The position numbers and the translations under genes are program-made. From assembly GCA_964645245.1 (NCBI GenBank), contig CAZYBS010000001.1, forward strand, positions 526-64,525: a stretch of DNA of 64,000 nucleotides. Reading direction: 5' to 3'. This document shows positions 1,823 to 54,231 of this stretch, piece after piece; position 1 is the first letter of the stretch, and every line of letters starts with the position of its first letter. The notes under the pieces were generated by a model. It was not told the DNA's origin and searched no databases. It was given only the letters and a program-made list of their open reading frames with translations. Source of the DNA: an uncultured Candidatus Saccharibacteria bacterium. GTDB lineage: Bacteria > Patescibacteriota > Minisyncoccia > Phycocordibacterales > UBA9973.

Positions 1823-3544
1823 TCAATGCTGGTAAAAACCCCTGGCTTCCGAGTCGGGAAGCATTATTAAATTCACGCCTTTTGTCCTGCAAAGCTCTAT
1901 TATTTTCTCATCATTGACTGAACCGCTGGTGGAAAAAATCGTTTTTATTCCACGACCGATGAGCACTTCCGGCGCGTCCGGAAAAGGAAAGAAGCTGTCG
2001 CTGTATGCGACAGCTTCTTTCAAATCCGCTATAGTTTCGGATTTAGGAGCTAAGCTCCCAAAAGGGAGCTTAGCTCCTAAATCGTTAGCAAATGCTGCCG
2101 CCTCATCGGCACGGAAAATAGCCAGCTTGGCCGCCCCGACGCGGTCTTGCTGTCCAACACCGTTGCCATAAAGTCTGCCGCCTTTGACTAAAGTAATAGT
2201 ATTGCTATTTGAGGTTGAGCCGATAGCCCAAGCAAGCACTGCGTCCTTGCTCTCAATCGCCGGCACAAAAGTATAATTGGGCTGTTCCATAAAGCCGCCC
2301 CGGACATAACGGAACCTTCTGGCATTATCTAAGGCAGACAATCCTGCTTTTAAAATGCCGCGGTTTGCTAAAAGCCGACATTTGCCTCCTTTACGAGAGA
2401 GAATTTGTTTTGCTTCTTCCGAGAATGACGGCGCGGCAACAACATCAAGCAGCCGTCTATTCGTTCCGGCATATTTGTGTATCAATTCTTCGGCTATTTT
2501 TTCATCAACATTAAAATTAAGCATTACCGAGCCGCCGAAAATTGCGCGCAGATCTCCCAATAGCATTTTGCCAATGGCATCGAGCCCTGACTCTCCTGTG
2601 CCTGCTCCGCAGGCATTGCCGTGCTTTGCCCCAATGGCAACACTTGACACTTCGCCGAAATTTTTTTCAAATCCAGCGCCAATGTGCGTCATCGTCTGCA
2701 TCATTCTGTCCAAATCGCAAATATTATTATAGGAAAGAGGGCTTCCGGCAACCAGAGCCCAATTATGAATCGCAAGCTTATCTTCACTAGCTGGGTCTTG
2801 CCTAGCTAGTTTGTACAAACTGGCAGGTTTTTGATAGGCATTTTCGCCGTATAATAAGGATTCTAAATTCCCGCCCGAACGACTAACGTCATCCAGTCGG
2901 GCGGGCTTCTTCCCAAAAATTCCTTTGTATTCGCCTTTACCATGATATTCACCTGAGACAGAGCAATATCTCGCAATTAATATCTCTGCTTTAGCAGCCA
3001 AATCATTTAAAAATTCTTCGCGATTGGGCTCGCCATTTTTGAGCCACTTAAGTACTGCTGCTCTATCAGAAGGTTCGCAAATTGTGATACGTCGCCCCTT
3101 CGCGCTTGAACGAATTAAAGCCACTCCACCCATATCCGTTTTTTCCAGTACCCCTTTCCTTCCTCCCCCTACGTAGGGGGAGGTGCCAGGGGCGGAGGGG
3201 GCATATTTTGCAATTTCTTCTTCGAGCGGGTACAGATCTACGCACACCAAATCAATCCAAGGAATGTCATATTTTTCAAGTTCAGCCAAGTGCTCGGGTG
3301 TGTCTAAGGCCAAAAGTCCGCCGTGAATCTTTGGATGAAGAGTCACAACACGATGACCTAAAATAGCGGGAAATCCGGTAATATCTGCCACATCGGTAAC
3401 GCTTACTCCAGCATCAGATAAATGCTTGGCCGTACCGCCGGAAGAAATGATTTTCCAGCCTAAATTTGCCAAACTTTGAGCAAAGTCCGCGATACCCGTT
3501 TTGTCATATACAGAAATTAGCGCTATTTTCTGTCTTTGTTCCAT
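1823..3544 (-). CDS. purH: bifunctional AICAR transformylase / IMP cyclohydrolase PurH
   Basis: MGS-like N-terminal domain (ALISVYDKTG...GGTAK) followed by AICARFT domain; 573 aa, lengthened by two in-frame palindromic insertions. Confidence 0.9.
   Translation of the reverse strand: MEQRQKIALISVYDKTGIADFAQSLANLGWKIISSGGTAKHLSDAGVSVTDVADITGFPAILGHRVVTLHPKIHGGLLALDTPEHLAELEKYDIPWIDLVCVDLYPLEEEIAKYAPSAPGTSPYVGGGRKGVLEKTDMGGVALIRSSAKGRRITICEPSDRAAVLKWLKNGEPNREEFLNDLAAKAEILIARYCSVSGEYHGKGEYKGIFGKKPARLDDVSRSGGNLESLLYGENAYQKPASLYKLARQDPASEDKLAIHNWALVAGSPLSYNNICDLDRMMQTMTHIGAGFEKNFGEVSSVAIGAKHGNACGAGTGESGLDAIGKMLLGDLRAIFGGSVMLNFNVDEKIAEELIHKYAGTNRRLLDVVAAPSFSEEAKQILSRKGGKCRLLANRGILKAGLSALDNARRFRYVRGGFMEQPNYTFVPAIESKDAVLAWAIGSTSNSNTITLVKGGRLYGNGVGQQDRVGAAKLAIFRADEAAAFANDLGAKLPFGSLAPKSETIADLKEAVAYSDSFFPFPDAPEVLIGRGIKTIFSTSGSVNDEKIIELCRTKGVNLIMLPDSEARGFYQH
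2870..2905. repeat. family-2 palindrome (variant loop) in-frame in purH
   Basis: cccgcccgaacgactaacgtcatccagtcgggcggg. Confidence 0.75.
3151..3202. repeat. family-1 GC palindrome inserted in-frame in purH
   Basis: cctccccctacgtagggggagg plus flanking G/C runs; encodes KYAPSAPGTSPYVGGGRKG absent from canonical PurH. Confidence 0.75.
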
Positions 3545-3550
3545 ATTGAA

Positions 3551-3925
3551 TTACTTTAATTCCACTTTCCCTCCGGCTGTTTCAATTTTTTTCTTAAGTT
3601 CTTCAGCTTCGGCTTTCTTCATTCCCGCTTTTAAGGTTCCCGGAGCGGCATCAACCAAATCTTTGGCATCCTTCAGTCCGAGACCCAAGACTTCTTTTAC
3701 GATTTTCATCACCGCAATTTTCTGTTCACCGGCAGATGCCAGAACGGCAGTAAAAGTATTTTGCTCCTCCTTTGCCTCGCTCGCCTCGCTGTCGCTTTGG
3801 CGAAGCGGGCCGGAGCCTTGAGCAGACACTCCAAACTTTTCCTCCAATGCCCTGACAAGCTCATGTAAGTCCAATACGGACATAGTTTCTATTTTTTCTA
3901 TAAGGTCTTTAAATTTTTCTGACAT
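3551..3925 (-). CDS. rplL: 50S ribosomal protein L7/L12
   Basis: 124 aa, conserved C-terminal domain KIAVMKIVKEVLGLGLKDAKDLVD...GGKVELK. Confidence 0.9.
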   Translation of the reverse strand: MSEKFKDLIEKIETMSVLDLHELVRALEEKFGVSAQGSGPLRQSDSEASEAKEEQNTFTAVLASAGEQKIAVMKIVKEVLGLGLKDAKDLVDAAPGTLKAGMKKAEAEELKKKIETAGGKVELK

Positions 3926-3936
3926 AATTCTAATTA

Positions 3937-4944: not shown

Positions 4945-6975
4945 CTAAATATCCGAATCTGACCAGACATCAGAATTATTGCGATGCAGACGGGCAAAAC
5001 TATAGGGAGCGTTAGGTACACATGCCACGCCAATTGCCGGTGCACAATTTGTTCCTGTTCCTGTTAAAAAAGTAGCAACATAGTACCAACCTACATAATT
5101 CGCATAACCAGCCGAACCTGAAAATTTTTGTCCATTACCCATAGCGGTATAAGAACTGCCAGAACAAGAAAAAACTTCAACTGGGCCAATTGGAGACTCA
5201 TTCATAAAGTTATAAGAATTATCAGTATCTGAAATAGCGTACATTACACGACTGCCTGAGTTAGCGACACAAGACAAAATAATATCTTGGGTAAATTCCC
5301 CAGTACTGGCAAAGGTGGGAAAAATTTGGATGGCAGAATTAGCTACCTGTCCATTAATTATTAGAGTATTCGCAGCTACTGTGGTATAAGCAACATTTGA
5401 ATTACCAACGGCATCGGTCAAGATAACGCTAGCTGGAACAGTGCCGGATGCCCTGTTGGTATTTCCGGAAACCACAGTGTAAGTAGCTGTGTAAATATTA
5501 CCTCCGGCATTTGTAAATCCAGTGGTCGCTACTCCATTAACAGTAATTGTTCCAGCGGTATAGTTCGCACCATCAGCCGTAATGGTTAAAGTAACAGTGC
5601 CACCGACTCCTTTAGAGCCAGAATTCGGAGTAAGAGTCAGGGCAGAAATCACAGGCGGGGTGGTGTCAGCCGGTGCTGGTGTCGGGTATGGTGTCGCATA
5701 TGGTGTTGAATATGGAGTCGAGTATGGTGTTTGGTAAGGCAATGGCAGATTGGCTGCCGCTACGCCGCCGCCGCCAGGCAAGAGACTGGGGTGGGAGATT
5801 TCTGGTACAACCCCCTCGGATTCCCCCTTGTCAGGGGGAACTGCCTCCCCTGATAAGGGGAGGTCAGGAGGGGTTTTTTCGGTATCTGCTATGGGAACAT
5901 TATCGACAACCGGTTTAGCTCCGACGCTTTCAGTCGGAGTCCCAACTTTAGTCGGGAGATTTTCTTTGGTAGAATTTTCGGTAGGTTCGGAGGAAGTGTC
6001 CTGTGACGCAGGAATACCGGCAAGAATTACAGCTGCGGCATTATTGGGGTTTTTATTAGTAAAAGACTTAGCAAAAGAATATGCATTTGACGCTATTTGT
6101 ATTACTTTATTTCCAATGGCCAAGCCAACCTTCTTAACTGTATTTTTTGCCAGAGCAATACCAGCCTTGCCAGAATCAATCGGATGATCAACAAAAGACA
6201 GCAGATTTCTTTGTAATTCATGCGCAAAGGTAACTGCGGGAGGATTTATGCATGGCATATACACATTTTGCATATTATTTGTTTGAAGTTTTTCAAGCGA
6301 CGATTCTATATCGGAAACAATTTTCGCGCCTTGATATTTTAAGTAAACGTCGGAAAAACTGTGACCGTCAGGGTCATCTGACAGCTGAAACAGAATATGG
6401 GTATTGGGTGGCAATATTTTAAGTACACGCCCGACACGCGCAGCGATAACTCTATCTGTATCGGAAGTTATGTAATTTCCTCCTCCGGCCACATGGGAAG
6501 CCGGAGTGGCCACGCCATATACACCAATGGACTCTCTCGGGATAGAGGCTAAGCCTCTATCTGTAACTTTATCGTAAAAATTATTGGCATAAAAGTTGCC
6601 TTGGGAATGGCCGACCAGTAATAATTTTTGAGTGGTGACCTTTTGACTGGCATCATTCCACATTTCGATCAGATCATAATCGGATTTTTCATCAAAAAGT
6701 CCTTGCTGTACGGCGTCTATGAGATCAAGAGCTCCGCCGGCGTGGGATGGGTTATGAAGAAAATCTATAGTTACAAATTCATTTTTGTATATTTTTGTTA
6801 ACTTATCTTCAAGAGCTTTTTTATTTTCTTGTGCTCCTCTTTGGTCAGTATTTATTCCGTTGATTGTAAAAATAGAATATCCAACAGGTGAACAAGCCCC
6901 CACCTGAGCAAAAACAAAACTAGGTAATAAAGATATGATTAGCGCAAAAATAACTAATTTAAAAAACAAGGTCAT
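4945..6975 (-). CDS. secreted alpha/beta-hydrolase (lipase/esterase-like, GHSQG nucleophile elbow) with Pro/Thr-rich linker and C-terminal Ig-like domains
   Basis: signal peptide MTLFFKLVIFALIISLLPSFVFA (start moved to internal Met to avoid overlap with the upstream gene), GXSXG motif GHSQG, PYxTPY repeats, beta-rich C-terminus; carries an in-frame GC-palindrome insertion at 5811-5880. Confidence 0.55.
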   Translation of the reverse strand: MTLFFKLVIFALIISLLPSFVFAQVGACSPVGYSIFTINGINTDQRGAQENKKALEDKLTKIYKNEFVTIDFLHNPSHAGGALDLIDAVQQGLFDEKSDYDLIEMWNDASQKVTTQKLLLVGHSQGNFYANNFYDKVTDRGLASIPRESIGVYGVATPASHVAGGGNYITSDTDRVIAARVGRVLKILPPNTHILFQLSDDPDGHSFSDVYLKYQGAKIVSDIESSLEKLQTNNMQNVYMPCINPPAVTFAHELQRNLLSFVDHPIDSGKAGIALAKNTVKKVGLAIGNKVIQIASNAYSFAKSFTNKNPNNAAAVILAGIPASQDTSSEPTENSTKENLPTKVGTPTESVGAKPVVDNVPIADTEKTPPDLPLSGEAVPPDKGESEGVVPEISHPSLLPGGGGVAAANLPLPYQTPYSTPYSTPYATPYPTPAPADTTPPVISALTLTPNSGSKGVGGTVTLTITADGANYTAGTITVNGVATTGFTNAGGNIYTATYTVVSGNTNRASGTVPASVILTDAVGNSNVAYTTVAANTLIINGQVANSAIQIFPTFASTGEFTQDIILSCVANSGSRVMYAISDTDNSYNFMNESPIGPVEVFSCSGSSYTAMGNGQKFSGSAGYANYVGWYYVATFLTGTGTNCAPAIGVACVPNAPYSFARLHRNNSDVWSDSDI
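5811..5880. repeat. family-1 GC palindromes (two hairpins) in-frame in hydrolase gene
   Basis: tcccccttgtcaggggga and cctcccctgataaggggagg followed by ggaggggtttttt. Confidence 0.75.
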
Positions 6976-6979
6976 TACT

Positions 6980-7600
6980 TTAGTTTGGTAAAGTGGAATA
7001 ATCAATATCACAAATTATATCTAATGAATTATAACTACTTAGATTTTTATAAAAATCAGCCTGTGCTTGATCTCTCGCTTTTGTATTAATTTGTAGTTTT
7101 TTAATAAAATTAATAAATACCTTAATTTTCTCCATATCAGTATCACTTCTGGACGACTCAGGACTTTTTCTTGGCACAAGAGTATCACTGACACAGGAAC
7201 TGGCTCTGTCTTCTTCACGAATTACCTCTGTTACCGTTTCTTTATTTACTATCGGTTGTATAAACTCCATCTGCAACGCCAGTGCATACTGCAAAAGGAC
7301 GGCGCGGGTTTTGGCGGAGTTGGGATATTCTTTGAAAATAGCCAGTTCAACGTCGTCACGAATGCCGTTATTATTGGCATCAATGCCTGGCACCGTTTTA
7401 TCCGCATCGGCGCCGGGGTCCGGCGGAAGATTTTCGCCCAGCACGTCAGAAAACTGGAGTTTGGTGGCGTGAATTTTCGCCACCTGCTCTTTGGTCTTTT
7501 CCTCTTCCAGACGAAACGGCAGTCTGATGATTTCCGCCAGAATAAATAAACTTACTAAAACAATCCCCGTCCATTTTAATATTTTTAATGTTTTATTCAT
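6980..7600 (-). CDS. hypothetical membrane-anchored protein
   Basis: 206-aa ORF with N-terminal TM anchor. Confidence 0.45.
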   Translation of the reverse strand: MNKTLKILKWTGIVLVSLFILAEIIRLPFRLEEEKTKEQVAKIHATKLQFSDVLGENLPPDPGADADKTVPGIDANNNGIRDDVELAIFKEYPNSAKTRAVLLQYALALQMEFIQPIVNKETVTEVIREEDRASSCVSDTLVPRKSPESSRSDTDMEKIKVFINFIKKLQINTKARDQAQADFYKNLSSYNSLDIICDIDYSTLPN

Positions 7601-8005
7601 TTATGAATTATATAATACTTTATATTAAAAATAGAGCAGGCCGGCGCTTGAAAGCTGCCGGCCTGAGATTTCTCGCCGCAGACGTAAGTGTTATGTATCT
7701 ACTATATGAGGGGGATGGCAACCCCTCACGCAGGACATTCCTCACCATCCACGGCGAGATTTGTTGGAGAGAGGCTAAAACTAGCCCTCAATCTCCGATG
7801 TCTATTCCGAAGAACTTGTACGCCGCGGACTGGGGGCCCAAGCCCAGCGCGATAATCGCCTCTCGCCCCCCGGTGAGAAACGCCATACCACGCTAAACAC
7901 CCCAGTCCACGGCTGATTTATCTTCGCATGTGAAGTATGCCCTTGTCAATGAAAACAAGCACAACAAAAATACAGAGGATTATCCTCTGTATTTTTGTTC
8001 AGCTC

Positions 8006-8120
8006 GCCTCTTCCCCCTCTCCTTGAACCCCTTTGTATTCCCCCTTATCAGGGGGAAATCATTTGTCTCCCCTGATAAGGGGAGGTCAGGAGGGGTTGGA
8101 GAGGGGCTGGGGAGAGGTCG
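8006..8120. repeat. intergenic tandem cluster of family-1 GC palindromes
   Basis: cccccttatcaggggga, ctcccctgataaggggag, ggaggggttggagaggggctggggagagg. Confidence 0.8.
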
Positions 8121-8123
8121 TTT

Positions 8124-8596: not shown

Positions 8597-8648
8597 ACCT
8601 CACCCCTTCCCCCTCTCCTTAATAAGGGGAGGGGCTGGGGAGGGGTTA
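8597..8648. repeat. family-1 GC palindrome directly downstream of giant gene stop
   Basis: cctcaccccttccccctctccttaataaggggaggggctggggaggggt. Confidence 0.8.
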
Positions 8649-8650
8649 GA

Positions 8651-8880
8651 TTACTTCGCCATAGCGTTCATCAAAGCTTTTGTTTTCTTGCCGATCAGGC
8701 CGTCAGCTTTCAGGCCATTGTCCTTTTGCCATTGCTTGATAACAGCAATGGTCTTGGGACCGAGTTTGCCATCCAGGACTAGACCCAGATTCAAGACTTT
8801 GTTCAAGAATCTTTGCAGCTCCTTGACCGGTTCACCTTTGCTGCCGCTCTTCAGAGTGACGGTGCCGAAATTGTAGGGTG
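8651..8880 (-). repeat. peptidoglycan-binding-domain 3' cassette, copy 1 (end of giant gene)
   Basis: ~230 bp ~93% identical to 15744-15970. Confidence 0.8.
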
Positions 8881-11800
8881 TAGCTGGAGTAGCCGGCGTT
8901 GCAGAGCTTACTCCCGGAACTGCCGGGGTAGCCGGTGTTGCAGGAGCGGCCGTACTTACAATATTCCCTACACAGGACTTACCTGTAACTGTGCTGAAAC
9001 CAGTGGTTCTATTGCCACAGCCAGTAATTGCTGTTGGGGTAGTCGCAGTTGTGGTAGGAGTGGTGGTCGTAGTAGTAGAAGGAGTACTTGAACTGCTGGA
9101 GCTGCTGCTCGAGGTACTGGCTGCGGGAGAATAAGATGCTCCTGAAGAAGCCGCAGCGCTGGCAATAAATGTTGGAACGGCTGAAGACGCGCTGCTTGCG
9201 GCCGATTCATCTCCAGTCGAATTTAGCGCGCTGATTTTAAAGTAATAAGTCGTCCCGGAAGTCAAGCCCGTTGCTTGAAAACCCACTGAAGTAGACGAAC
9301 CAGCTAGAGGGAAACTGCTATTATCGGTGGATTGGTAAATATTATAACTGGCAGCGTTGGCTACGGCTGTCCAGCTGAGACCAACAATAGTTCCGCTATT
9401 AGGCTGGATAGAGAGCGTCAGACCAGTTGGTGTGGCTGGAGGAGTTCCGCCGGACGCAACCATTGGGGCAAAGTCGGACAAGTGAGAAACTGTGGCGGTC
9501 AGAGTATTAAGAGTTGTGTCCACGGTGGTTGACAAGGTGTCGTAAGTTTGGTTCGCATCATTCCACACACCAATCACTAGCGATGCTTCACTCGTGCCGG
9601 CGGGCAAATCACCTTCGGTATATGGAATGGTGATTGTAATTTCGTCATTCAAGCTGGAAATCGGCGAGCCGTCAGAACCTACCGCGTCAATTGATACCGC
9701 GTTCTTAGAAAGGATAGCGCCGCTTGGCGGATTAGGCATAGCCGTATTAACCCTAGTCGTGACCGTTGCGGCATTAGAGCCCGTGCCCAATGCGTTGGCC
9801 GGAATTTCCATTTGGAAGAAATTGCCAATGTCAGTGTTGGTTAGGAATCCTCCAGATGCGGGAGTAACAGTTTCCGGACGTTCCGCTTTAATGGTAAAGC
9901 CGGAAATCGCGGTCAAGGCAAGGTTTTGGCCTGAAGGACTATTGTTGCTGACCGTGACCGGTAAAGGACCGCCTTCGTAGCCGTGGCTATGAGCTCTTAT
10001 CGTCCAGGTGCCATTATCCACGTTGAGGGTATAAGCGCCCGCGGCATTAGTCTGGGCTACGGCGTAGCCGCCGGCTCCATCGGTAGCGTCAACAAAGGCA
10101 TTAGACACGCCGCTGGCATCAATGGTAATCGTACCAGTAATGGTTCTGGCAGCAGTAGTTAAGGCGATAGTGCTTACGGCAACGGTTGCGTTTGTCACCG
10201 TAGCGGTGCTTTCGGCCGGAGATTTGTATCCCGGCTTGTCGGCCCGAACTTTATACACTCCCGGCGGAACACTAATACTGAATGTTCCATTGGAAGCGGT
10301 TTGTCCGCCTAAGAAGATAGTGTTGGTTTGTCCAGTTGGAGTTCCGTTCAAAGACACCCAAGCGCCAGATAAAGCCGATCCATCTCCGTTCACTGTTCCA
10401 GTTACCGCATATAGTACTCCAGCCGATGCCGTGTAGGTAATCGTGCGCGTGGTATTAACCCCGGTGGTTGTTCCGACACTGCCATAGGCCGGATGCCCTG
10501 CCCGGACAGTATACGTTCCCGGTGGAACAACCACGGTATAAACCGCGTTGGCGCCGGAAGTGGTTGAGGTTGAAGTAAAGTTACCGCGGCCATTGGAATC
10601 ACGAACTTCCACTCCGGCATTGGCAATGGCATTGGTGCCATCAGTGATATTAATCGTAATGGTGATAGGCGCCGCTTGGGTGCAATTTTTTCCGGAAGTA
10701 GTAGTGTTAGCCGTCACCGCAATACCGGTTACCGGCGTGCCTTCTCCGACTCCCGGGAAATAACAAACAAGCGAATAAGTTCCAGCTGGAACCCTTAAGC
10801 TGTAAGTGCCGTCAGAGCCAGTTGTGGTCATATTGCCGCTAGAGCCCGTAGAATCCTCCGCCCGCACCATCACGCCCTGCACGGCAACAGTTGCCTGCGT
10901 GGCAGTACCGGTAATGGTCCCCATAGATAAACTTTGCGCGGAGAAATCCTGACCGCTGGAACTGCTGGTGGTAATCGTAATAGTTTTGGTTCCCAAGCGT
11001 CCAAAGCCGGGAGCAAAAGCTTCCACGACCCAAGTGCCGGCCGAGACATACAGAGTGTAGGCGCCGTTAGCGTCAGTCGGACCACCGACAAAGTTTCCGC
11101 TATCGCCTCCAACGGCTGTGGTATTGGAAGTGGAAACGACTTTGCGTCCGGAAACACCAGCGTAAGAGATGGCATTGCCTGAATCGTCTTTAATCGTTCC
11201 GGTAATAGTCAAAGTGGTTGCGGCATCAAGCACGAAGGCGAGAGTGGTTGGAGTATTGGCAGATGCGCCCACGGTAATTTGTTTTTCTGGAACCGGCGGC
11301 ATGCCCGGTTTAAACACTCCGCAGAGGTAAACTCCCTGGACTGTCTTTAAGGTAAAGGCCCCGGTAGTTCCAGTTTGGCCGCCGGTGCCGAATCCGCCGG
11401 CCGAACCAGTGGTGGATGCGGCTACTGGACGGCAGAAGACACCAGCACCGGAGACTCCGGTACCCGCAGAATCAACTACGGTTCCAGTAATGGTTTTATC
11501 AGCCGTGGATAAAACGAAGGCCAGCGCCGGGACAGTTGAGTTAGAGACACTGACACCTGCCACATTTACCTGAACGCTTGGCGGAGGCATGAAAGAAAAG
11601 TCCGGTGGTGGTGGAGGCGGAGCGCCCGGAGTAAAGGAAGTTTCCGGCATGGCTGGGCCAACTCCAATATTGTAAGAACTATTGGCCAAAACCGGCAGAG
11701 AATAAGCAACGGGAGACCCGGTCATCGTTAAGGTCTTTTTAGTAAAACCATTGGGCGAAGAAGCAAAAATGTCCACTTTCGTAGTATTGGCCCCATTGAT

Positions 11801-15633: not shown

Positions 15634-15661
15634 AAAAAACCACTCTGAAAAGTGGTTTTTT
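15634..15661 (-). terminator. rho-independent terminator hairpin
   Basis: aaaaaaccactctgaaaagtggtttttt, stem flanked by A/T runs (potentially bidirectional). Confidence 0.6.
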
Positions 15662-15666
15662 GCATT

Positions 15667-19611: not shown

Positions 19612-19682
19612 CCTCACCCTACCCTCTCCAAAGGAGAGGGTAAATCACCCCTCCCTTTTGGGGAGGGGTTGGGGAGAGGTGG
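19612..19682. repeat. family-1 GC palindromes (two adjacent hairpins)
   Basis: ccctctccaaaggagaggg and cccctcccttttggggagggg. Confidence 0.8.
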
Positions 19683-19688
19683 TAAATA

Positions 19689-19785: not shown

Positions 19786-19842
19786 CCTCACCCCTCCGCC
19801 CCTCTCCATAACTTAGTTATGGAGAGGAGTTGGGGGAGAGGT
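19786..19842. repeat. family-1 GC palindrome directly downstream of 19842-23348 gene stop
   Basis: cctcacccctccgcccctctccataacttagttatggagaggagttgggggagagg. Confidence 0.8.
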
Positions 19843-23750: not shown

Positions 23751-24456
23751 GGTACCTACTCCAGCGTTTCTCTCCTGTCTTATTAAGGATACTGTCCTTG
23801 ACCATAGATACTAACTCTCTCTGTAATGTCTTTTCACTACAAGAAGAAATGAGTGACCCTGCCTCGCCGGCAGGCAGGCCTGAAGCTTTGGTTTTAATAT
23901 CCGTTATGGTAACACCACTAGGACTGGCTTTTATTACAGATATTATTAGATCTCGTCTTTGTTTTTTTACGGACAAAGCAAGAGTTCTATCGGACAAAGC
24001 TTTCATAAGAGTGCTCCCTTTTTGGACACCGATTCTAGTATGTCCTTTAGAATTTTCTCTCCCCCTGCTAAGGGGGAGTGCTCCGACCCGGGTCGGAGCG
24101 AGGGGGTCAGACCCCTCCTCATTCCTCCCCTTAGCAGGGGAGGAATTTTCTAAAAATTCTTCAAGCCATGTAGGTTTTATTTGCTTGGACTCACTTATGG
24201 ATTGATTGAGTTCTGTGAATTCTTTTCTGAGAATATTGCTATTCATTTCAGAAATGATATTAACGGCGGAAGCTATGTCCAAAAAGGACATGATCTCAGA
24301 TATTTTAGGTAAAGTATTTACCGGGGCAAAATGCATGTCCGATATAATATTAGTGCCTAATGTCCTTAACTTATTCCGAAGTGGCTCTTCTTTGTCCATA
24401 ATGTCTGTTACCATATAAAGCGCAGTAATAAGTTTATTGGTCTTGGTGTAAGACAT
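23737..24456 (-). CDS. hypothetical protein with C-terminal winged-helix-like segment
   Basis: start set at MSYTK (upstream ORF extension is a translated repeat half-copy); contains in-frame ~90-bp GC-palindrome insertion at 24056-24144. Confidence 0.4.
   Translation of the reverse strand: MSYTKTNKLITALYMVTDIMDKEEPLRNKLRTLGTNIISDMHFAPVNTLPKISEIMSFLDIASAVNIISEMNSNILRKEFTELNQSISESKQIKPTWLEEFLENSSPAKGRNEEGSDPLAPTRVGALPLSRGRENSKGHTRIGVQKGSTLMKALSDRTLALSVKKQRRDLIISVIKASPSGVTITDIKTKASGLPAGEAGSLISSCSEKTLQRELVSMVKDSILNKTGEKRWSRYQIRG
24056..24144. repeat. composite family-1 GC palindrome (nested hairpins) in-frame in 23737-24456 gene
   Basis: ctccccctgctaagggggag ... ctccgacccgggtcggag ... gagggggtcagacccctcctc ... 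cctccccttagcaggggagg. Confidence 0.75.
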
Positions 24457-24458
24457 CA

Positions 24459-24488
24459 ACCTCACCCCTTCGCCCCTCTCCTTAATAT
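24459..24488. repeat. family-1 half-copy (left arm only) at the 5' end of the same gene
   Basis: cctcaccccttcgcccctctccttaata. Confidence 0.6.
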
Positions 24489-24586: not shown

Positions 24587-26809
24587 ATGAAAAATAAAAA
24601 AGAAAATCCAGTAGGACTAAAAACTCAAACCAAACACGGGATAATGGCAGTCATTTTTTTTGTTTTGGCATTATTTTTTTTAATGTCCGCCTTTGAGATG
24701 ACGGGAGTCGCCGGTGAATTTATTTATGAAAAACTTAATTACCTTTTAGGTATCGGCTATGCACTTCTTCCTGCCCTTTTTGTCTTGCTTGGGTCTTCAT
24801 TTGTAAAATCGGAGACTCCGGATATCGGATGGACAAGTACAATAAGTGGAATAATGTTTCTCCTCTCGGGGCTCGGACTAATAGACATTGCCTCCGGTAA
24901 GCATTCGGGCGGATTGTTAGGAGAAATTTTATCAATACCTCTGGTCTCTCTTTTTGACGCATATGCGAGCATTATTTTCCTCGGCGCAATTTTAATAATT
25001 TCAATTCTGGTAATATTTGACGCAAAACTGGACATCGCGCCTTTTTTTGAAAAACTCTGGATTTTGATAACGAAGAAAAAAGCAGAGAAATACTCTTCCC
25101 CTGCTAAGGGGGAGATAGCCGAAGTAGAGGGGGTCGACCCCTCCCTAATCCTCCCCTTAGCAGGAGAGGAGGAATCAGAACCGATAACTAAAAAAATTAA
25201 AAAAGTATTGGGTATAAGTAAGGAAGACGAAGAAGAGATGCCAATTAAAAAAAGGAAAGCGGATCTTTCTACTTACGTTCCTCCCCCACTGTCTCTATTG
25301 GAAGAAGATCAAGGTAAGCCGAATACCGGCGACATAAAAGCTAATGCCAATATAATAAAACGCACGCTCCTAAACTTCGGCATTGAAGTGGAAATGGATG
25401 AAATAACAATCGGGCCGACCGTCACGCGTTATGCATTGAAACCGGCCGAGGGAATGAAACTCTCGCGCATTATCGGCCTCACCAACGACCTGGCGCTGGC
25501 GCTGGCGGCGCACCCGATTAGAATAGAGGCGCCGATTCCGGGAAAATCTTTGGTTGGCATTGAAATTCCAAATAGAACAAAGTCGCTAGTCGGTCTGGCC
25601 ACCCTGCTGGCTGATGATAAATTCCAAAATTCTTCAAAACCCCTGACTATAGCCCTAGGCCGCAACATCGGAGGCAAGTCAGTATTTGGCAACCTGGCCA
25701 GAATGCCGCATTGTCTGGTCGCCGGCGCAACCGGTTCCGGGAAATCAGTAGCTATTCACGCGATGATTACTTCCCTGCTTTATAGAAACGGGCCAGACGA
25801 CTTGAAATTTATAATGATAGACCCCAAGCGCGTAGAGCTCACCCTTTATAATAATATTCCGCACTTGCTCACTCCCGTCATCACTGATGCCAAAAAGACA
25901 ATCCTGGCTTTGAAGTGGGCAGCCAAAGAAATGGATCGCCGTTATGACATATTGGAAGCAGAATCCGTGCGAGACATAGAATCTTACCATAACAATATCT
26001 GGAAAGAAGGGGGTGGTGATCGTCTACCTTATATTATCATTATAATAGATGAGTTAGCAGACATAATGAGTTCTTATCCGAGAGAACTTGAATCCGCCAT
26101 CATCCGCCTGGCGCAACTGTCCAGAGCTGTGGGCATTCATTTAATCTTGTCTACCCAGCGTCCGGAAGTAAATATCATTACCGGCCTAATTAAAGCTAAT
26201 ATTCCGGCTCGAGTCGCCCTGAAAGTTTCTTCGCAAGTAGATTCACGCACCATACTGGATGCCGGCGGCGCAGAAAAACTTTTGGGCGCCGGAGATATGC
26301 TTTATTCTTCGGGCGAAGCTCAGCCAGAACGCTTGCAGAGCGCGTTTATTTCCGAAGCCGAAGTTAAAAAAGTCGTAAAGTATCTGGCCGATGTATATAA
26401 AGATGAAATATCCGAAGAGATAGCATTTTCGGCAGGAAATATGGCAGTTGATAAAAGTATTTTTTCCGCCCAAGGCGCCGCGCCTGCCGGATTTGGCGGG
26501 CAGGGACCAGCCTTGGGCTGGGAAAGCTTAGATGAAGGAGGTGATGACGATGAACTGTACGAAGAAGCGAGAGCTTGTGTCATAGAGGCCGGTAAAGCGT
26601 CAACTTCTTATCTGCAAAGAAAATTAAAATTAGGATACGCACGCGCGGCGCGCCTAATGGATAAATTGGAAGAACGTGGAGTAATCGGCCCCGGCGATGG
26701 CGCAAAACCCAGGGAGGTATTGTCCCGACGTCCAGAGGAGTCGGGATCCCGACCGCAAACGTCGGGAGAGAAAATCACGCATGATGATATGGGGGGTAAT
26801 ACAATATGA
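24587..26809 (+). CDS. ftsK: DNA translocase FtsK
   Basis: N-terminal TM helices, linker, motor domain with Walker A GATGSGKSV, C-terminal gamma domain (SYLQRKLKLGYARAARLMDKLEERGVIGP). Confidence 0.9.
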   Translation: MKNKKENPVGLKTQTKHGIMAVIFFVLALFFLMSAFEMTGVAGEFIYEKLNYLLGIGYALLPALFVLLGSSFVKSETPDIGWTSTISGIMFLLSGLGLIDIASGKHSGGLLGEILSIPLVSLFDAYASIIFLGAILIISILVIFDAKLDIAPFFEKLWILITKKKAEKYSSPAKGEIAEVEGVDPSLILPLAGEEESEPITKKIKKVLGISKEDEEEMPIKKRKADLSTYVPPPLSLLEEDQGKPNTGDIKANANIIKRTLLNFGIEVEMDEITIGPTVTRYALKPAEGMKLSRIIGLTNDLALALAAHPIRIEAPIPGKSLVGIEIPNRTKSLVGLATLLADDKFQNSSKPLTIALGRNIGGKSVFGNLARMPHCLVAGATGSGKSVAIHAMITSLLYRNGPDDLKFIMIDPKRVELTLYNNIPHLLTPVITDAKKTILALKWAAKEMDRRYDILEAESVRDIESYHNNIWKEGGGDRLPYIIIIIDELADIMSSYPRELESAIIRLAQLSRAVGIHLILSTQRPEVNIITGLIKANIPARVALKVSSQVDSRTILDAGGAEKLLGAGDMLYSSGEAQPERLQSAFISEAEVKKVVKYLADVYKDEISEEIAFSAGNMAVDKSIFSAQGAAPAGFGGQGPALGWESLDEGGDDDELYEEARACVIEAGKASTSYLQRKLKLGYARAARLMDKLEERGVIGPGDGAKPREVLSRRPEESGSRPQTSGEKITHDDMGGNTI
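25094..25172. repeat. composite family-1 GC palindrome in-frame in ftsK linker
   Basis: cttcccctgctaagggggag ... gagggggtcgacccctccc ... cctccccttagcaggagagg; close relative of the 24056-24144 copy. Confidence 0.75.
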
Positions 26810-27306: not shown

Positions 27307-28380
27307 ATGTTAAAGAAAAAAGAAAAAAAAGAAGACAAGACTGTGGGAATAGCTGTGCTGGAAGATACTTTGAAGTCAATCCAAAATAAATTTGGCGAAG
27401 GAGCCATAATGAAGTTCGGTGATTCACCGAAGGTGGACGTCAATGTGGTGCCAACTGGCTCTATCGGCCTGGATATGGCGCTCGGAGTCGGCGGGATACC
27501 ACGCGGCAGAATTATTGAAATATTCGGGCCGGAATCATCCGGAAAGACAACGCTCGCCTTGCATATCGCGGCGGAAGCGCAAAAGCTCGGTGGGATCTGC
27601 GCCTACATAGATGCCGAACACGCAATGGACCCGGAATATACCAAAAAACTTGGAGTTAACATAAATAATCTGCTCATTTCCCAACCGGATAACGGCGAAC
27701 AAGCGCTGGAAATCGTAGAGAGCTTAGTGCGAACGGGAAAAATTGATGTCATCGTTATCGACTCGGTGGCAGCGCTCACTCCCAAAGATGAGATTGAAGG
27801 TGATATGGGCGCATATCATGTCGGCAAGCAGGCCCGCCTGATGTCCCAAGCGCTGCGCAAGCTTACGGCAATAGTGGCAAGGTCTAAGACCGTTGTTATT
27901 TTTATAAATCAAATCCGCATGCAAATCGGAGTGATGTTCGGCAATCCAGAAACTACTCCGGGAGGCAAAGCGCTGAAGTTCTACACTTCGGTCCGGCTGG
28001 ATATTCGAAAAATCGCTCAAATAAAAAAAGGGGAAGAAGTTGTGGGTTCGCGCACCCGTGTCAAGGTAGTGAAAAATAAGGTCTCAGCTCCATTCAAGCA
28101 GACGGAATTTGATATTATTTACAACGAAGGCATTTCCAAAGAAGGCGAGATTATGGCATTGGGAGAGAAATTCAAAATCATAGAAAAAACCGGGAATTCG
28201 TATTTCTATGTACCCCTACCCGGCCTCCCCCTTAATAAGGGGGAGGAGAAAGGAGGGGGTAAAGAGAAAATAAAGCTCGGCGTAGGCTATGACTCTACCC
28301 GCACGTTCCTGAAAGAAAACAAAAAAATCTCCGACCAAATCCTGAAAGAAATTAAAAAGAAATTTACGGAGGAAGCGTAA
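27307..28380 (+). CDS. recA: recombinase RecA
   Basis: [36 protein letters not shown] and remaining conserved RecA core; C-terminal region has an in-frame palindromic insertion. Confidence 0.95.
28212..28260. repeat. family-1 GC palindrome in-frame in recA C-terminal region
   Basis: cctcccccttaataagggggagg; adds [17 protein letters not shown] relative to canonical RecA. Confidence 0.75.
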
Positions 28381-34812: not shown

Positions 34813-34833
34813 AGAAATACTATATCACAAAAC

Positions 34834-34883
34834 ACACCCCTCCCCAACCCTCCCCTTATTAAGGGGAGGGCGAAGGGTGAGGT
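34834..34883. repeat. family-1 GC palindrome, intergenic, opposite orientation
   Basis: cacccctccccaaccctccccttattaaggggagggcgaagggtgagg. Confidence 0.8.
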
Positions 34884-34887
34884 GAAT

Positions 34888-43700: not shown

Positions 43701-44768
43701 AAATTTGCCTTCAAGGTTTACCAAGTGATGCTTGGGCAGTCCCAGCTTTGTTCCCAATACAAAATCATCCTGCCCGTACATTACAGCAGTGTGCACAATT
43801 CCCGTACCTTCTTCTGTATTCACAAAATCTGCCGCATATACTTTGTAAGCTTTTTCCAGCTTAGACTTTTCACTTTCAGATATTGTGTCGGCAAGACACG
43901 GGAAAAGCGGCTCGTATTCCAAGCCAATCAAATCTTTGCCTTTCACCTCCTCTAAAATTTCATAGCCTTCGGTCAGTATTGAAACTCTTTCTTTGGCTAA
44001 AATTAATATTTCATTTCTAACTTTTACTTTTATATAAATAATATCTTCTTCCACCGCCAGTGCCACATTGCCAGGAAGAGTCCACGGAGTAGTGGTCCAT
44101 GCCAAAATGTAAGTATTCTCTTGCCCTTTTACTTTAAATTTAACTGTTACAGACAGATCCTTGTCGTCTTCGTATCCTTGTGCGAGCTCGTGCGAGGAAA
44201 GTACTGTACCACACCTTGGACACCATGGCACAACTTTATAATCTTTGTAGAGTAAATCCTGCTCATTTATTTTTTTGACCACATTCCAAAGAGATTCAAT
44301 ATAATCATTGTGATATGTCACATATGGGTTCTCCTGGTCCAGCCAATACCCGATACGCTTGGTAAATTTATTCCATACATCCAGATATTCCCAAACGCTT
44401 TCCTTGCATTTTTGATTAAACTTGGCAATGCTATATTCTTCAATCGCTTTTTTAGAATTCAATCCCAGCTTCTGTTCTGTTTGAATTTCTACCGCCAATC
44501 CATGCGTATCCCACCCGCCCTTGCGACGAACGTGATAGCCACACATTGTCTTGTATCGAGGAATTGCATCCTTAAATGCTCGCGCTTCCAGGTGATGAAT
44601 CCCCGGCTCACCATTGGCGGTCGGTGGACCTTCATAGAAAATAAATTCTTTTTTGCCTTCCGTTTGCCCCAAAGATTTTTCAAAAATTTTATTTTTCTGC
44701 CAAAATTCCAAAACAGCTTCTTCGCGGAAAGCGGCGTCAGATTTTTCATTTGTTCCCTTTTCAGCCAT
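40776..44768 (-). CDS. ileS: isoleucyl-tRNA synthetase (type 2) with internal histidine-phosphatase-like insertion and C-terminal HD-domain fusion
   Basis: PPTANGEPGIHHLEAR HIGH-like region, CP1 editing domain, KMSKSLGN; 1330 aa; RHGE...VGHDG module at aa ~508-700; LLHDMGN HD motif in last ~200 aa. Confidence 0.9.
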   Translation of the reverse strand: MAEKGTNEKSDAAFREEAVLEFWQKNKIFEKSLGQTEGKKEFIFYEGPPTANGEPGIHHLEARAFKDAIPRYKTMCGYHVRRKGGWDTHGLAVEIQTEQKLGLNSKKAIEEYSIAKFNQKCKESVWEYLDVWNKFTKRIGYWLDQENPYVTYHNDYIESLWNVVKKINEQDLLYKDYKVVPWCPRCGTVLSSHELAQGYEDDKDLSVTVKFKVKGQENTYILAWTTTPWTLPGNVALAVEEDIIYIKVKVRNEILILAKERVSILTEGYEILEEVKGKDLIGLEYEPLFPCLADTISESEKSKLEKAYKVYAADFVNTEEGTGIVHTAVMYGQDDFVLGTKLGLPKHHLVNLEGKFIKGTGFLEGRLVKEKDISKDGEPGKPTLDLDIIKYLADKNLFFSKENYQHSYPHCWRCQTPLIYYARDSWYIKMSNPGIKEQMIKENREINWEPSHIRDGRFGEWLREIKDWAISRERYWGTPLPVWVCESCKKVEVIGSIAGLREKTEKSGNKYFVMRHGEADNNVNNFHHQDSEHKANLTKNGERQVLESAQKLARKIDVIISSPLNRAKQTAKITCEQIGFPLEKVIYDERVQEWETSSFFEGKDRTLFRKYYDVDYLNDPFEILSDGENFVQVVKRIGDFIYDLEKKYSDKNILIVGHDGATRALSFVLKGLLFSGLSIKNNPLIYLQNAEVKEFDFIPLPHNENYELDLHRPYIDKVTLVCSCGGNLIRTKEVMDVWFDSGAMPFAQDHYPFDPKKILYPADFICEAVDQTRGWFYTLHAVGVLMGRGKAYKNVTCLGHLLDVAGKKMSKSLGNVVDPWVMIGKYGVDTLRLWMYSVNQPGESKNFDERTVALLHQQVFGLLYNVLAFYELYPIPEQARYGASRDKPKSKHVLDVWILARLDELTEMTTKNLDNYKLLEPVRAMRDFIGDLSTWYLRRSRERIKEGDKEAKQTLYFVLKNLAKLLAPFAPFAAEDIWLKLRNEDDKESVHLCEWPKMLKGILDIFSGEKNKVLKNMETVRQIVTLGLEARQKTGIKVRQPLGELKVKSLKLGGEFLEIMKEELNVGRILEDKNISEEVWLDTTITPELRAEGEYRDFMRELQDTRKKMGLAPGDKMAMSIETIYKKYKIIPSLQEHMLRVAAVASLICDNFNESLNKEEIITACLLHDMGNILKFKLDSFPEFLKPEGLSYWQKVKDGYVNKYGNDEYSASLKIAQELQVSDEVLELIKAISFLGAPGNALGIDYGKKIVEYCDDRVIPFGVVSLEQRFLDLRKRYEHRGGNTPERIAFENAVRQMEKQIFSKCKIRPEDINDKTVAPVIEQLKNFVIQ

Positions 44769-52504: not shown

Positions 52505-52506
52505 AA

Positions 52507-54231
52507 TTAAGAAATATCAACTACTCTTAATCTTAACTCTTCTTTGCCTCTAAATCTAGACAAATCAAAGGTGGCTAAAAGATCAACGTTCTTATCTTCA
52601 GTCAGGGGTATTTTAAAAGAATCGTGATTAGAAAAAAAAGAAATTGCTTTGGCTTTATGTTTATCGGCATCAGAAAAAATAATTTCTAAATGTTCGCCGG
52701 AGCCATTTTTGCCGAACTTTTTAATATTTTCTATTTTCACATTTTCAAAAAGAAAAATTGGTTTTGGATTGCCAAGACCAAAAGGCGCGAGTTTTTCCAT
52801 TTCACGCCAATTTTTCATATTTACATCAACTAAAGAAAGTTTTGCATCAAAACCGACCCCCTCCCCCCTCCCCCTTGTCAAGGGGGAGGTGCTGGAAGCA
52901 GAGGGGGTAATTTTCGCGTAAGAGATAGATAAGGCTTCTTCTAAGAAATGAATTTTCTCATTATGAACTGTGAATCCTCCAGCCAGTTCGTGCCCGCCGA
53001 AATCCAGGAAATATTCTCGGTTTTCTGTCATCAGCTCCACCACCGATACTGACCCATCACTCCGGCAAGAGCCTTTGATACAATCATTTTCGTCTTTTCC
53101 CCAGACAAAAACAGGTTTTTTGTACTGATCCGAAATTTTCCCAGCCACCAGACCCAATATTCCTACACGCCAATTGGGATTACCCATTACGATAACATCT
53201 CTGTGTTCACGCAAAGGACTCATGCTAAACTTTTTATTTACTTCGCGCATAATACCGGTTACAATAGTTTTTCTCTCATCATTGATTTTGGATAAATAGT
53301 CTGCCAAGACTCCGCCCCTGGCCTCATCATCCGTTGCTAGAAGCTCAAAAGCCCGCAGTGGGTCATCCATGCGGGAAGCGGCATTAAGGCGAGGAGTAAC
53401 CATAAAGCATATATCATCCTCCGACAAATATCTTTGGTCAATATTCATTTTGGCTAAAAGCTTTTGCAAACCCGGGCGAGGAGATTTTCTCAACACTTTC
53501 ATTCCAAAATACGAGATAGCTCTATTTTCTCCTGTTAGCGGAACCATGTCAGAAAGCGTGGCCAAGCCTGCCATATCCAGCATCCACTTCTCAGAGCCCA
53601 TTTTGATTTTAAAATATTCGCCATACTTTTTTACAAAAGCTTGCGCGAACTTAAAAACCACCCCTGCGCCACAGAGCCCGCCCGAATCGCTACGCGAAGC
53701 GTTGCGGGCGGGCATTTTCCCCGGATAACCATCCACTTTTGGGTTCAGAATAGCGTAAGCCCGCGGCAAAATTTCGGGTGGAATATGATGGTCGGTAATT
53801 ATTACATCAATGCCATCTACCTCGGCTTGAGCCACCTCCGCCACGGCCGTAATACCAAGATCAATGGTTATCAAAAGTTTTACTCCTTTTTCGCTAAATT
53901 GTTTTATCGCATCAAGATTGAGCCCGTATCCTTCAGAATTTCTTTGAGGTATATAAATTTCATAATTTTTGTAATTTATTTTTTTTAACAAATCCTGTAA
54001 AATCACCGCTCCCGGAATTCCATCGCAATCATAATCCGCGTAAATGACTATTTTTTCTTTATTCTCTATTGCTTCAAAAAGCCGGACACAAGCCTTCTCC
54101 ATATCTTTCATTAAAAATGGGTCATGCAAATCTCTTTCGTAATTTGGATTAAGAAAAGTCTCCGCTTGTGTTTCGTCAGTAATTCCCCTCTTTTCTAAAA
54201 GTGTCCTTAGTAATTCGCCGTACTTTTGCAT
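52507..54231 (-). CDS. recJ: single-stranded-DNA-specific exonuclease RecJ
   Basis: DHH motifs (ADYDCDGI, ITDHH), DHHA1 domain; start set at MQKYGELL because the upstream ORF extension translates a repeat hairpin; in-frame family-1 insertion at 52855-52908. Confidence 0.85.
   Translation of the reverse strand: MQKYGELLRTLLEKRGITDETQAETFLNPNYERDLHDPFLMKDMEKACVRLFEAIENKEKIVIYADYDCDGIPGAVILQDLLKKINYKNYEIYIPQRNSEGYGLNLDAIKQFSEKGVKLLITIDLGITAVAEVAQAEVDGIDVIITDHHIPPEILPRAYAILNPKVDGYPGKMPARNASRSDSGGLCGAGVVFKFAQAFVKKYGEYFKIKMGSEKWMLDMAGLATLSDMVPLTGENRAISYFGMKVLRKSPRPGLQKLLAKMNIDQRYLSEDDICFMVTPRLNAASRMDDPLRAFELLATDDEARGGVLADYLSKINDERKTIVTGIMREVNKKFSMSPLREHRDVIVMGNPNWRVGILGLVAGKISDQYKKPVFVWGKDENDCIKGSCRSDGSVSVVELMTENREYFLDFGGHELAGGFTVHNEKIHFLEEALSISYAKITPSASSTSPLTRGRGEGVGFDAKLSLVDVNMKNWREMEKLAPFGLGNPKPIFLFENVKIENIKKFGKNGSGEHLEIIFSDADKHKAKAISFFSNHDSFKIPLTEDKNVDLLATFDLSRFRGKEELRLRVVDIS
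52855..52908. repeat. family-1 GC palindrome in-frame in recJ
   Basis: ctcccccttgtcaagggggag plus flanking C/G runs; encodes TSPLTRGRGEGVG. Confidence 0.75.

Follow-up and report, generated by a model that had tools for sequence, protein, structure and literature searches.

A dispersed family of GC-rich palindromes between genes and in frame within housekeeping genes of a Patescibacteria genome

The stretch of DNA analysed here, called the window throughout, is 64 kb long and belongs to a metagenome-assembled genome (MAG) of the Patescibacteria, or candidate phyla radiation (CPR). It is about 93% coding, with a GC content of 43%, and its genes are ordinary housekeeping genes together with several for large cell-surface proteins. 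By RecA, the nearest species-level genomes (72-94% identity) are Candidatus Nomurabacteria / Paceibacteria MAGs. Scattered over the window are copies of a short GC-rich palindromic repeat, here named family-1, which lies both between genes and inside open reading frames (ORFs). We are highly confident that family-1 is a truly present, dispersed repeat family and that it has been inserted in frame.

The core of the repeat, CCCCTTNNNAAGGGG, with at most one mismatch, occurs 8 times in the window against 0.18 expected, a number that was reached in none of 100 shuffles. Clusters of a C-run followed by a G-run number 19, compared with a mean of 5.8 and a maximum of 12 in block shuffles, and 14 of the 19 are family-1 loci. 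Hairpins with a perfect pyrimidine stem of at least 7 bp containing CCCC were found 15 times. Altogether the census gives about 16 elements at 14 loci (Table 1); the initial annotation had counted at least 15 copies, which is a fair figure, and hairpins are present at all the coordinates that it cited.

In a copy of family-1, the outer arm that comes first is rich in pyrimidines (ACCCC(C/T)..); a short spacer then leads to a C-run/G-run hairpin of 7-11 bp, for example CCTCCCCCTT-NNN-AAGGGGGAGG, with a loop of 3-4 nt. The unit ends with another spacer and an outer arm rich in purines (..GGAGGGGGT). The outer arms, ACCCC(C/T).. and ..GGGGGT, constitute terminal inverted repeats, which in the compound form read TACAACCCCC and GGGGGTTGTA. 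Three forms were distinguished: a simple form of 49-54 nt (in purH, recA and recJ, and at 34833), a type-A form with the arms CCTCACCCCTTCGCCCCTCTCC and GGAGAGGGGCGAAGGGTGAGG (8597, 15667, 19786 and 63529), and a compound form of 65-118 nt with 2-4 hairpins (5811, 8026, 24056 and 25094). On folding, every copy forms nested hairpins.

The copies are related beyond the motif, since a block of 31 nt is exactly common to 5845-5875 and 8067-8097, and the composites at 24056 and 25094 can be aligned end to end. Further repeat families of the window (D9-D12 and D15) also tie copies together. Copies are found within copies: a compound copy occupies the loop of a type-A copy at 8005-8122, and the reverse order is seen in a sister locus (L003, 5974-6107), which carries identical 47-nt copies at two sites. 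The idea that a polypyrimidine/polypurine design keeps all six frames open was rejected, the copies being no more stop-free than composition-matched shuffles.

Table 1. Family-1 elements in the window. Positions are those of the window; strands of genes are given in parentheses.
Position	Form	Setting	Remarks
159..193	short copy, CCTCCCCTCCTT-AATC-AAGGAGGGG + right G-arm	downstream of MscS-like gene 409-1104(-)	
3151..3202	simple copy	in frame in purH 1823-3544(-)	encodes APSAPGTSPYVGGGRKGV, aa 115-132
5811..5875	compound two-hairpin copy, REPIN-like	in frame in ORF 4945-7011(-)	encodes EKTPPDLPLSGEAVPPDKGESEGV, low-complexity linker
8005..8122	nested element	intergenic	compound 8026-8097 in loop of type-A palindrome (8005-8024 + 8098-8122)
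8597..8650	type-A copy	abuts stop codon of surface-protein gene 8651-15514(-)	gene product of 2287 aa
15667..15722	type-A copy	3' UTR of gene 15744-16547(-)	stop codon on one side, canonical terminator hairpin on the other
19646..19683	short copy, ACCCCTCCC-TTTTG-GGGAGGGGT + G-arm	intergenic	
19786..19840	type-A copy	directly past stop codon of gene 19842-23348(-)	gene with PG_binding_1 domain
24056..24144	composite copy, 3-4 hairpins	in frame in ORF 23737-24507(-)	encodes SSPAKGRNEEGSDPLAPTRVGALPLSRGRE, non-conserved linker
24454..24485	half type-A copy	ORF 23737-24507	first 17 codons (MLGDEKNIKERGEGVRL) of the ORF
25094..25172	composite copy	in frame in ftsK 24587-26809(+)	encodes SSPAKGEIAEVEGVDPSLILPLAGEEE, linker between 4TM and alpha domains
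28212..28260	simple copy	in frame in recA 27307-28380(+)	17 aa (aa 302-318), C-terminal-domain beta-hairpin
34833..34884	simple/type-A copy	fills 75-nt spacer between genes 34888-36192(-) and 33739-34812(-)	
52855..52908	simple copy	in frame in recJ 52507-54231(-)	encodes TPSASSTSPLTRGRGEGV, between DHHA1 and OB domains
63500..63528	L-unit-type copy, AACCCCCTAAA + hairpin TCCCCCT-TATC-AGGGGGA	intergenic	
63529..63578	type-A copy, CACCTCTCCCCAACCCCTCTCCTT-ATT-AAGGAGAGGGGCGAAGGGTGAGG	3' UTR of gene 63581-63946(-)	adjacent to the preceding copy

The density of family-1 is about 19-fold greater in the non-coding 7% of the window, chiefly in 3' untranslated regions (UTRs) directly past stop codons. 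As the initial annotation had noted, the copies at 8597, 15667 and 19786 follow the stop codons of surface-protein genes; the distances are 0-21 nt, and the genes carry PG_binding_1, Big_5 or fn3 domains. Two surface-protein gene ends (8652-8878 and 15745-15971; 227 nt, PG_binding_1) are 93% identical and each is followed by a type-A element, and the copies at 8597 and 15667 may descend from one duplication of a gene end together with its element. At the 34833 site the orthologous spacer is empty (26-42 nt) in 10 of the 13 sister genomes in which both genes are still adjacent, and the other three have spacers of 51-64 nt, one of them holding a degraded copy.

A role as intrinsic terminators was considered and rejected, because the copies lack T-runs and the three stop-codon-adjacent ones are not called as terminators. 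The sole terminator call within family-1 is the hairpin 8038-8057 of the nested element, and canonical terminators, at 15640-15665 and 19684-19725, adjoin the copies. Searches with Rfam 15 gave no match at gathering score in the window and chance-level matches only in E-value mode, and there was no match on the Photobacterium array described below.

Six full copies and one half copy of the about 16 are intragenic, and all six ORFs stay open, in agreement with the initial annotation. Pfam confirmed four of the hosts (PurH, FtsK, RecA and RecJ), while the ORFs 4945-7011 and 23737-24507 have no Pfam match; the name alpha/beta-hydrolase given earlier to the former has no backing besides a GHSQG motif. 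The true start of ORF 23737-24507 may be the M at codon 18.

The extra residues were expected to fall in surface loops or linkers, and this is where they lie. Solved structures of RecA align with the window protein to residue 301 and pick up again past the insert, and the RecA_C match in Pfam takes 74 residues to cover 56 profile positions. The AlphaFold model of RecA has a mean pLDDT (predicted local distance difference test) of 55 and only its C-terminal domain, where it is reasonably confident, was used; there the insert (pLDDT below 50 at 310-319) is predicted to lie at a beta-hairpin tip, flanked by strands 298-301 and 322-326. In the PurH model the insert joins helices 107-114 and 128-135 as a coil (pLDDT below 50 at 117-125). 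The RecJ insert lies in the linker from DHHA1 to OB, that of FtsK in a non-conserved linker from the membrane part to the motor, and that of ORF 23737-24507 likewise in a non-conserved linker.

Beyond the window, the exact core CCTCCCCCTTNNNAAGGGGGAGG was matched on at least 120 contigs from metagenomes. Where these are low in GC and CPR-like, it lies in frame in LepA, RecA, an RluA-type pseudouridine synthase, the CCA-adding enzyme (twice) and TruB, and further in-frame hosts are SerRS, ArgRS, RNase HI and TrmD (the last in a Buchananbacteria MAG). Among 91 exact-core copies on contigs with GC below 0.5, 41 are in stop-free frames of at least 150 aa; their frames read LPLxKGE (25), SPLxRGR (10) and PPPxxGGG (6), although these counts are not phylogenetically independent. 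The initial annotation had proposed to check that intragenic copies are multiples of 3 in length. The element lengths that it cited are not, but the net differences from empty orthologous sites are, being +33, +24 or +45 nt in recA and +27 nt in LepA.

The frame bias, the universal preservation of the frame and the decayed copies that are still in frame argue for inserts that are translated and not bypassed. It is very improbable that the segments are absent from the mature proteins, either because they are bypassed in translation, like the 'byp' elements of Magnusiomyces mitochondria, or because they are removed from the RNA. Mobile GC-rich hairpins that ribosomes skip do exist (cited in PMC6649704). 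However, all the intragenic copies are a net multiple of 3, stop-free and in frame, the frames used are biased to benign peptides, even in decay the frame is kept, and the intergenic copies, in contrast, often have TAA in their loops.

The comparison with orthologues shows the extra peptides to be lineage-specific fillings of loops or linkers. The orthologues from unrelated lineages that were compared, those of E. coli, Mycobacterium and distant Paceibacteria, are without the segments. RecA of the distant Paceibacteria reads SYSYG-EEKLGRGYD at this position, and in the closer clade of Nomurabacteria the loop is of 10 aa (xPxGEKxEKI), encoded by 30 nt. Relative to this empty loop the recA of the window is 33 nt longer, and that of L003 is 45 nt longer with an additional hairpin nested within. 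In L001, L013 and L016 the addition is 24 nt, and a synonymous GGG-to-GGT change breaks the stem with the frame retained. Of 120 RecA clusters that match the window protein at 85% identity or more, the empty 10-aa loop is present in 45, a loop of 8-9 aa in 5 and family-1 in about 25; in other clusters the same loop holds at least four different palindrome families, so that at least five are known there when family-1 is included.

Similar patterns of presence and absence, as the initial annotation had anticipated among sister genomes, were seen at the other sites. About 110 of 120 PurH homologues have the empty loop EEEIxNPNATRESVIEKTD, and filled loops are read in different frames (APSA.GTSPYVGGGR, SSSPAKGRTEEG and TSFPLGRIEEG); PurH P0023 (IAKGGGREAV) appears to contain an element remnant. 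A family-1 peptide recognisable by eye is present in about 30-35 of 120 RecJ homologues, in several frames and subtypes, and a cruder length cut-off flagged 46, which are weakly clustered on a poorly resolved tree. The filled RecJ sites did not come out as monophyletic (25 Fitch changes on a UPGMA (unweighted pair group method with arithmetic mean) tree, against 37 with shuffled labels), on a star-like tree that fits multiple gains as well as losses. About half of the close relatives have no hairpin whatever at the same sites. Elements are patchily distributed: most of 80 sister loci have none, against a density per kb of 0.23 for the window, 0.57 for L013 and 0.81 for L003. The FtsK motor domain has a loop of about 20 aa in most sisters, with a compound family-1 copy there in L003, L013 and L015. 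The window FtsK has a much shorter loop at about aa 470-480 (WKEGGGDRLPY), which may be a palindrome-mediated deletion that took the ancestral loop too, and the PurH P0023 remnant looks like a comparable case.

That the segments are ancestral low-complexity loops or artefacts of assembly has a practically negligible probability. Nothing specific speaks for it; MAGs can hold chimeric repeats, and one short-read contig (L083, from Logan) breaks off within the 5811 copy. Yet the segments are missing from most orthologues and from the solved structures, and their palindromy is at the DNA level. Moreover, the sequence is identical in three independent assemblies, namely NCBI (VMFV01000001.1 of GCA_007376215.1, reverse strand, under the organism name Parcubacteria group bacterium Gr01-1014_24), ENA and Logan, and hundreds of unrelated samples contain these elements too.

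A recent event was caught in lepA. P0289 and P0292, two LepA proteins of 636 and 627 aa, share 99% identity, and their contigs (L108 and L206), which come from metagenomes other than that of the window, are 100% identical over 652 + 1310 nt (1,962 nt). The sole difference is that 34 nt (ACCTAAAGAAAGTTATCACGGAGACAATATTTTA, ..PKESYHGDNIL) are swapped for a 61-nt element (21 aa), a net change of +27 nt, and there is no target-site duplication. This pair shows directly that turnover takes place in a near-clonal background, and that the event was a replacement. The filled allele, with the same junctions, is also present in a LepA lineage that is 83% identical in DNA (L096). At the recA, purH and recJ sites the flanking loop residues differ between filled and empty orthologues, which is the replacement pattern seen in LepA. 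When the flanks of 381 clusters were compared with all loci, no recent filled/empty pair besides LepA was found, and within the 90%-identity clusters of ArgRS, RecA and SerRS the differences are tandem duplications or start codons only.

Events of this kind could also be expected if the elements arose in situ, by synthesis with fold-back or template switching on runs of purine-rich Gly/Glu/Lys codons (GGnGAGGAGAAAG) that makes the pyrimidine arm locally, and independently each time at similar host sequences. In recA, the copy's right spacer (GGAGAAAGGAG) is similar to the sequence of the empty site, GGAGAGAAAGCCGAG, the short recA form resembles 24 nt added upstream of the host GGT GAG GAG AAA, the favoured frame puts KGEEK on the purine arm, and the events appear as replacements rather than clean insertions. 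We nevertheless regard this origin as improbable. Long exact identities, spacers and outer arms included, connect unrelated loci (31 nt; copies of 47 nt), the same architecture is found in intergenic DNA and in other phyla, and the 34 nt lost in LepA are not a purine-rich precursor of the element.

Contigs bearing the core range from 30 to 67% in GC, and on most of them one outer arm or both are retained. Judged by protein clusters at 90% identity, the hosts include Gammaproteobacteria, Burkholderiales, Reyranella and Abditibacteriaceae, with copies located in spacers or at the ends of genes. In PLSDB the unit is present in at least 40 places in Photobacterium sp. GJ3, whose plasmid pGJ3-1 carries an unannotated tandem array, about 2.4 kb long and repeating about every 141 nt (L208, 18484-20908). 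The array alternates an L unit (TAACCCCCTCCTAG + hairpin) and an R unit (hairpin + CCAGGGTGGGGTT), both near-identical to the CPR element. Aeromonas caviae has the unit in 9 places, as L+R doublets, and it is also found in Rahnella and Shewanella; single, weak matches on Thermus and Deinococcus plasmids (E 0.3-0.9) were discounted. The layout in Photobacterium and Aeromonas is that of bacterial interspersed mosaic elements (BIMEs) and of doublets of repetitive extragenic palindromic (REP) sequences (REPINs). The compound copies of CPR correspond to L+R doublets, and the simple copies to an L unit and an R unit with one common hairpin. These matches show that family-1 is not CPR-specific; in Proteobacteria it looks REP/BIME-like.

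The conservation of orthologous copies at the nucleotide level was assessed from third positions at codons for the same amino acid. Six orthologous recA genes with a full copy, 74-81% identical in DNA, agree at 96.7% (207/214) of these positions within the element and at 45.6% gene-wide, and no 17-codon window exceeds 55%. In recJ the values are 93.5% within the element and 56.1% in the host gene, the former above all 490 control windows, and in lepA they are 92.9% and 71.2%. The variation is confined to the loop and to the 5' (coding-strand) spacer or outer arm; the hairpin and the 3' purine arm are invariant. Such conservation fits either a structure under selection or copies that are renewed very often, through re-insertion or conversion out of a conserved pool, and frequent renewal would also fit the non-monophyletic filled sites, the many families per loop and the clonal polymorphism. 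That one arm of the hairpin is corrected against the other was rejected as the cause, as paired changes would still build up. Orthologous copies of family-1 are therefore maintained or renewed and do not simply decay, in contrast to copies of the Rickettsia palindromic elements (RPEs), which are reported to decay (PMC6649704).

The synonymous-site result strengthens the main rival explanation, which is compatible with much of the data, namely that family-1 consists of host-beneficial, REP/BIME-like structures (mRNA 3'-end stabilisers, attenuators, or sites for gyrase or nucleoid proteins) under purifying selection, some of which are forced into coding loops in compact genomes. Besides nucleotide conservation far over the synonymous background in three host genes, it would account for the intergenic copies in 3' UTRs directly past stop codons, for the BIME/REPIN-like arrays and doublets between genes in the Photobacterium and Aeromonas relatives, and for the five or more hairpin families in one RecA loop, which look as if the hairpin itself counts. 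We still consider it unlikely on the whole. At the same sites around half of the close relatives do without a hairpin, there are decayed orthologous copies that retain the peptide, both LepA alleles exist in one clonal population, and the copies, lacking T-runs, are not intrinsic terminators and match no Rfam family.

We think it likely that family-1 is a non-autonomous hairpin repeat which has been copied widely, has been filtered to 3' UTRs and permissive loops, is translated in the latter, and is turned over or maintained. According to this model the repeat would spread as DNA by copying, and selection would purge all copies save those in spacers and solvent-exposed loops. The loop copies that survive would be translated as a flexible peptide of about 17-30 aa, rich in Pro, Gly, Lys and Glu. 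Integration would proceed through a short replacement patch, as in recombination or repair, and, unlike cut-and-paste transposition, would leave no target-site duplication. Intact copies would owe their persistence to turnover or conversion that renews them, or to selection on the hairpin sequence, and either would lead to near-invariant synonymous sites in orthologous copies.

Several points weigh against this reading. Translation of the inserts is inferred and was not observed. The synonymous conservation of the copies is unexpected for neutral selfish DNA. There is one recent filled/empty pair, it has no target-site duplication, and gain and loss fit it equally. No mobilising enzyme was found: no window ORF has a transposase Pfam domain, a weak test by tblastn with an IS200-type Y1 transposase (an approximate query) gave nothing in 2.1 Mb of related loci, and no REP-associated tyrosine transposase (RAYT) was detected in the available sequence. 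Finally, a lineage-restricted mobile element does not explain the same unit on proteobacterial contigs. Our confidence in any particular mechanism of mobilisation is accordingly much lower than in the repeat as such. One could imagine a cross-phylum hairpin family that encodes no transposase, is written by recombination- or repair-templated patches, recurrently re-invades the same Gly/Glu/Lys-rich loops and, in the compact genomes of Patescibacteria, is a major and continuing source of lineage-specific insertions in core proteins (RecA, LepA and aminoacyl-tRNA synthetases among them), with intact copies kept near-invariant by selection or renewal; taken as a whole, this proposal is speculative and rather doubtful.

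By analogy, family-1 works like the RPEs, as in-frame palindromes tolerated in protein loops, and it resembles REP/BIME/REPIN sequences in its architecture and sequence relatives; by definition it is a member of neither. RPEs are dispersed palindromes of about 100-150 nt that lie between genes and, in frame, in housekeeping genes, according to the summaries of Ogata et al. (2000) in PMC10969869 and PMC6649704, and they are named in reviews as the main bacterial case of coding palindromes (PMC6649704). Family-1 is like them in having both intergenic copies and in-frame copies in unrelated housekeeping genes, where a surface peptide is added and the gene stays intact, in a site occupancy that varies between related species, and in the lack of an associated transposase. 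The two are set apart by size and host, and the likeness between them is a functional one: at 49-89 nt (49-118 nt over all forms), family-1 is given as three times shorter than the about 100-150 nt of RPEs, its host is a Patescibacteria MAG of a different phylum with 43% GC, and it is built of C-runs and G-runs. Unlike RPEs, family-1 uses several frames, the same loops are struck repeatedly by several families, its copies are conserved at synonymous sites, where those of RPEs are reported to be decaying, and it has relatives in other phyla. The initial description as selfish insertions in the style of RPEs therefore holds as a functional analogy; the events are replacements rather than clean insertions, and with copies conserved at the nucleotide level 'selfish' is not established.

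REPs are extragenic by definition, and those associated with RAYTs start with GT(A/G)G and differ between species (Nunvar et al. 2010, PMC2817692). With them family-1 shares a short GC-rich imperfect palindrome, within 20-40 nt, and an adjoining conserved head, as well as inverted doublets, mosaic arrays, a preference for 3' UTRs and short spacers, and a high copy number; its nearest relatives by sequence, in Photobacterium sp. GJ3 and Aeromonas caviae, show this very arrangement. However, about 40-45% of its copies on CPR-like contigs are inside ORFs, a near-identical unit of 50 nt extends across phyla, and a GT(A/G)G head is not consistent among family-1 units.

[quoted passage not shown] Like MITEs, family-1 is a small, non-autonomous repeat with terminal inverted repeats and occasional in-frame fusion to host ORFs. 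Unlike MITEs, it makes no target-site duplication, its one recent event being a 34-to-61-nt replacement, it is much smaller, it is palindromic throughout rather than at its ends, and it has no known parent insertion sequence. GC-rich hairpins that invade coding sequence are further found in mitochondria, as the GC-rich palindromic clusters of yeast, the mobile 'byp' hairpins of Magnusiomyces, which ribosomes skip (PMC6649704), and the coding hairpins of Nematomorpha, which are translated and actively kept perfect (PMC6649704). In contrast to family-1, all these systems are organellar, byps are skipped by the ribosome, and the Nematomorpha repeats are locus-specific and not one dispersed family.

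The initial annotation knew of no earlier description from CPR or Patescibacteria, and our full-text literature searches likewise found no MITE-, REP- or RPE-like elements described in these bacteria; searches for family-1 sequence strings, and for REP/RAYT in Aeromonas or Photobacterium, found nothing pertinent. New features are the host phylum, the tiny C-run/G-run unit and the several families on the same loops of universal proteins, and also the replacement-type polymorphism, the nucleotide-level conservation and the cross-phylum relatives. Protein-coding palindromes, a rare phenomenon previously known essentially from Rickettsia alone, are thereby extended to CPR bacteria, in RecA, RecJ, FtsK, PurH, LepA and tRNA synthetases, which gives the many small, unexplained insertions of CPR proteins a concrete source. 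The LepA alleles and the synonymous conservation make the questions of movement, and of parasite versus domesticated sequence, testable with existing metagenomes. In practical terms, the repeats break short-read assemblies, create spurious N-termini and ORFs, and inject non-homologous columns into alignments of CPR phylogenomic markers.

Other palindromes are present in the window as well. A second family of hairpins (CCCGCCCGAA-loop-TTCGGGCGGG, with the reading PARxxxxSGG) likewise occurs in frame, in ORF 26806-27219, TatD, PGK, RecJ (aa 174-185, PARNASRSDSGG) and PurH (aa 214-226, PARLDDVSRSGGN). Its copies at 26947-26976, 31152-31181 and 55834-55863 are 100% identical, and it fills RecA and RecJ loops of sister lineages. 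Two GC-rich segments of FtsK, QGAAPAGFGGQGPALGWE (26461-26524, aa 628-645) and SRRPEESGSRPQTSG (about 26720-26765, aa 712-726), are absent from 19 of 19 sister FtsK proteins, and the first of them belongs to another palindrome family (CCCAAGGC...GCCTTGGG). CTAGG-rich inverted repeats at 19106-19194 and 23672-23750 (for example AGGGGCTAGGTGCTAGGTTCTAG / CTAGCACCTAGAACCTAGCCCCT) make up yet another, intergenic palindrome family. In purH, two perfect palindromes with 15-nt and 20-nt arms (1987-2021 and 2040-2083) fall in a variable, low-confidence loop at aa ~487-519, a region with a weak match to rli61 of Rfam (E = 6e-4, below gathering score) and a position where PurH homologues have many different small inserts.

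Some features of the neighbourhood are unrelated to these repeats. The isoleucyl-tRNA synthetase (40776-44768, minus strand, 1330 aa) is an unusual fusion with a His_Phos_1 domain at aa 512-672 and an HD domain near its C-terminus. ORF 16691-19009 (minus strand, 772 aa) has no Pfam match and consists almost wholly of degenerate repeats with periods of 9 nt and longer (GCACCACCAGC-like on the plus strand); it probably encodes a Gly/Ala-rich repetitive surface protein. Just beyond the start of the window, a gene-poor stretch (L081, 16417-16920) carries a LAGLIDADG homing-endonuclease ORF. Two perfect palindromes, at 60366-60413 and 61641-61699, are both unrelated to family-1; one is intergenic with 23-nt arms (AGTAGATAGCGCCTTAGGCCCTA), and the other is AT-rich with 24-nt arms and lies near the junction of the T2SSE-/T2SSF-family genes 61712-63475 and 60409-61725.

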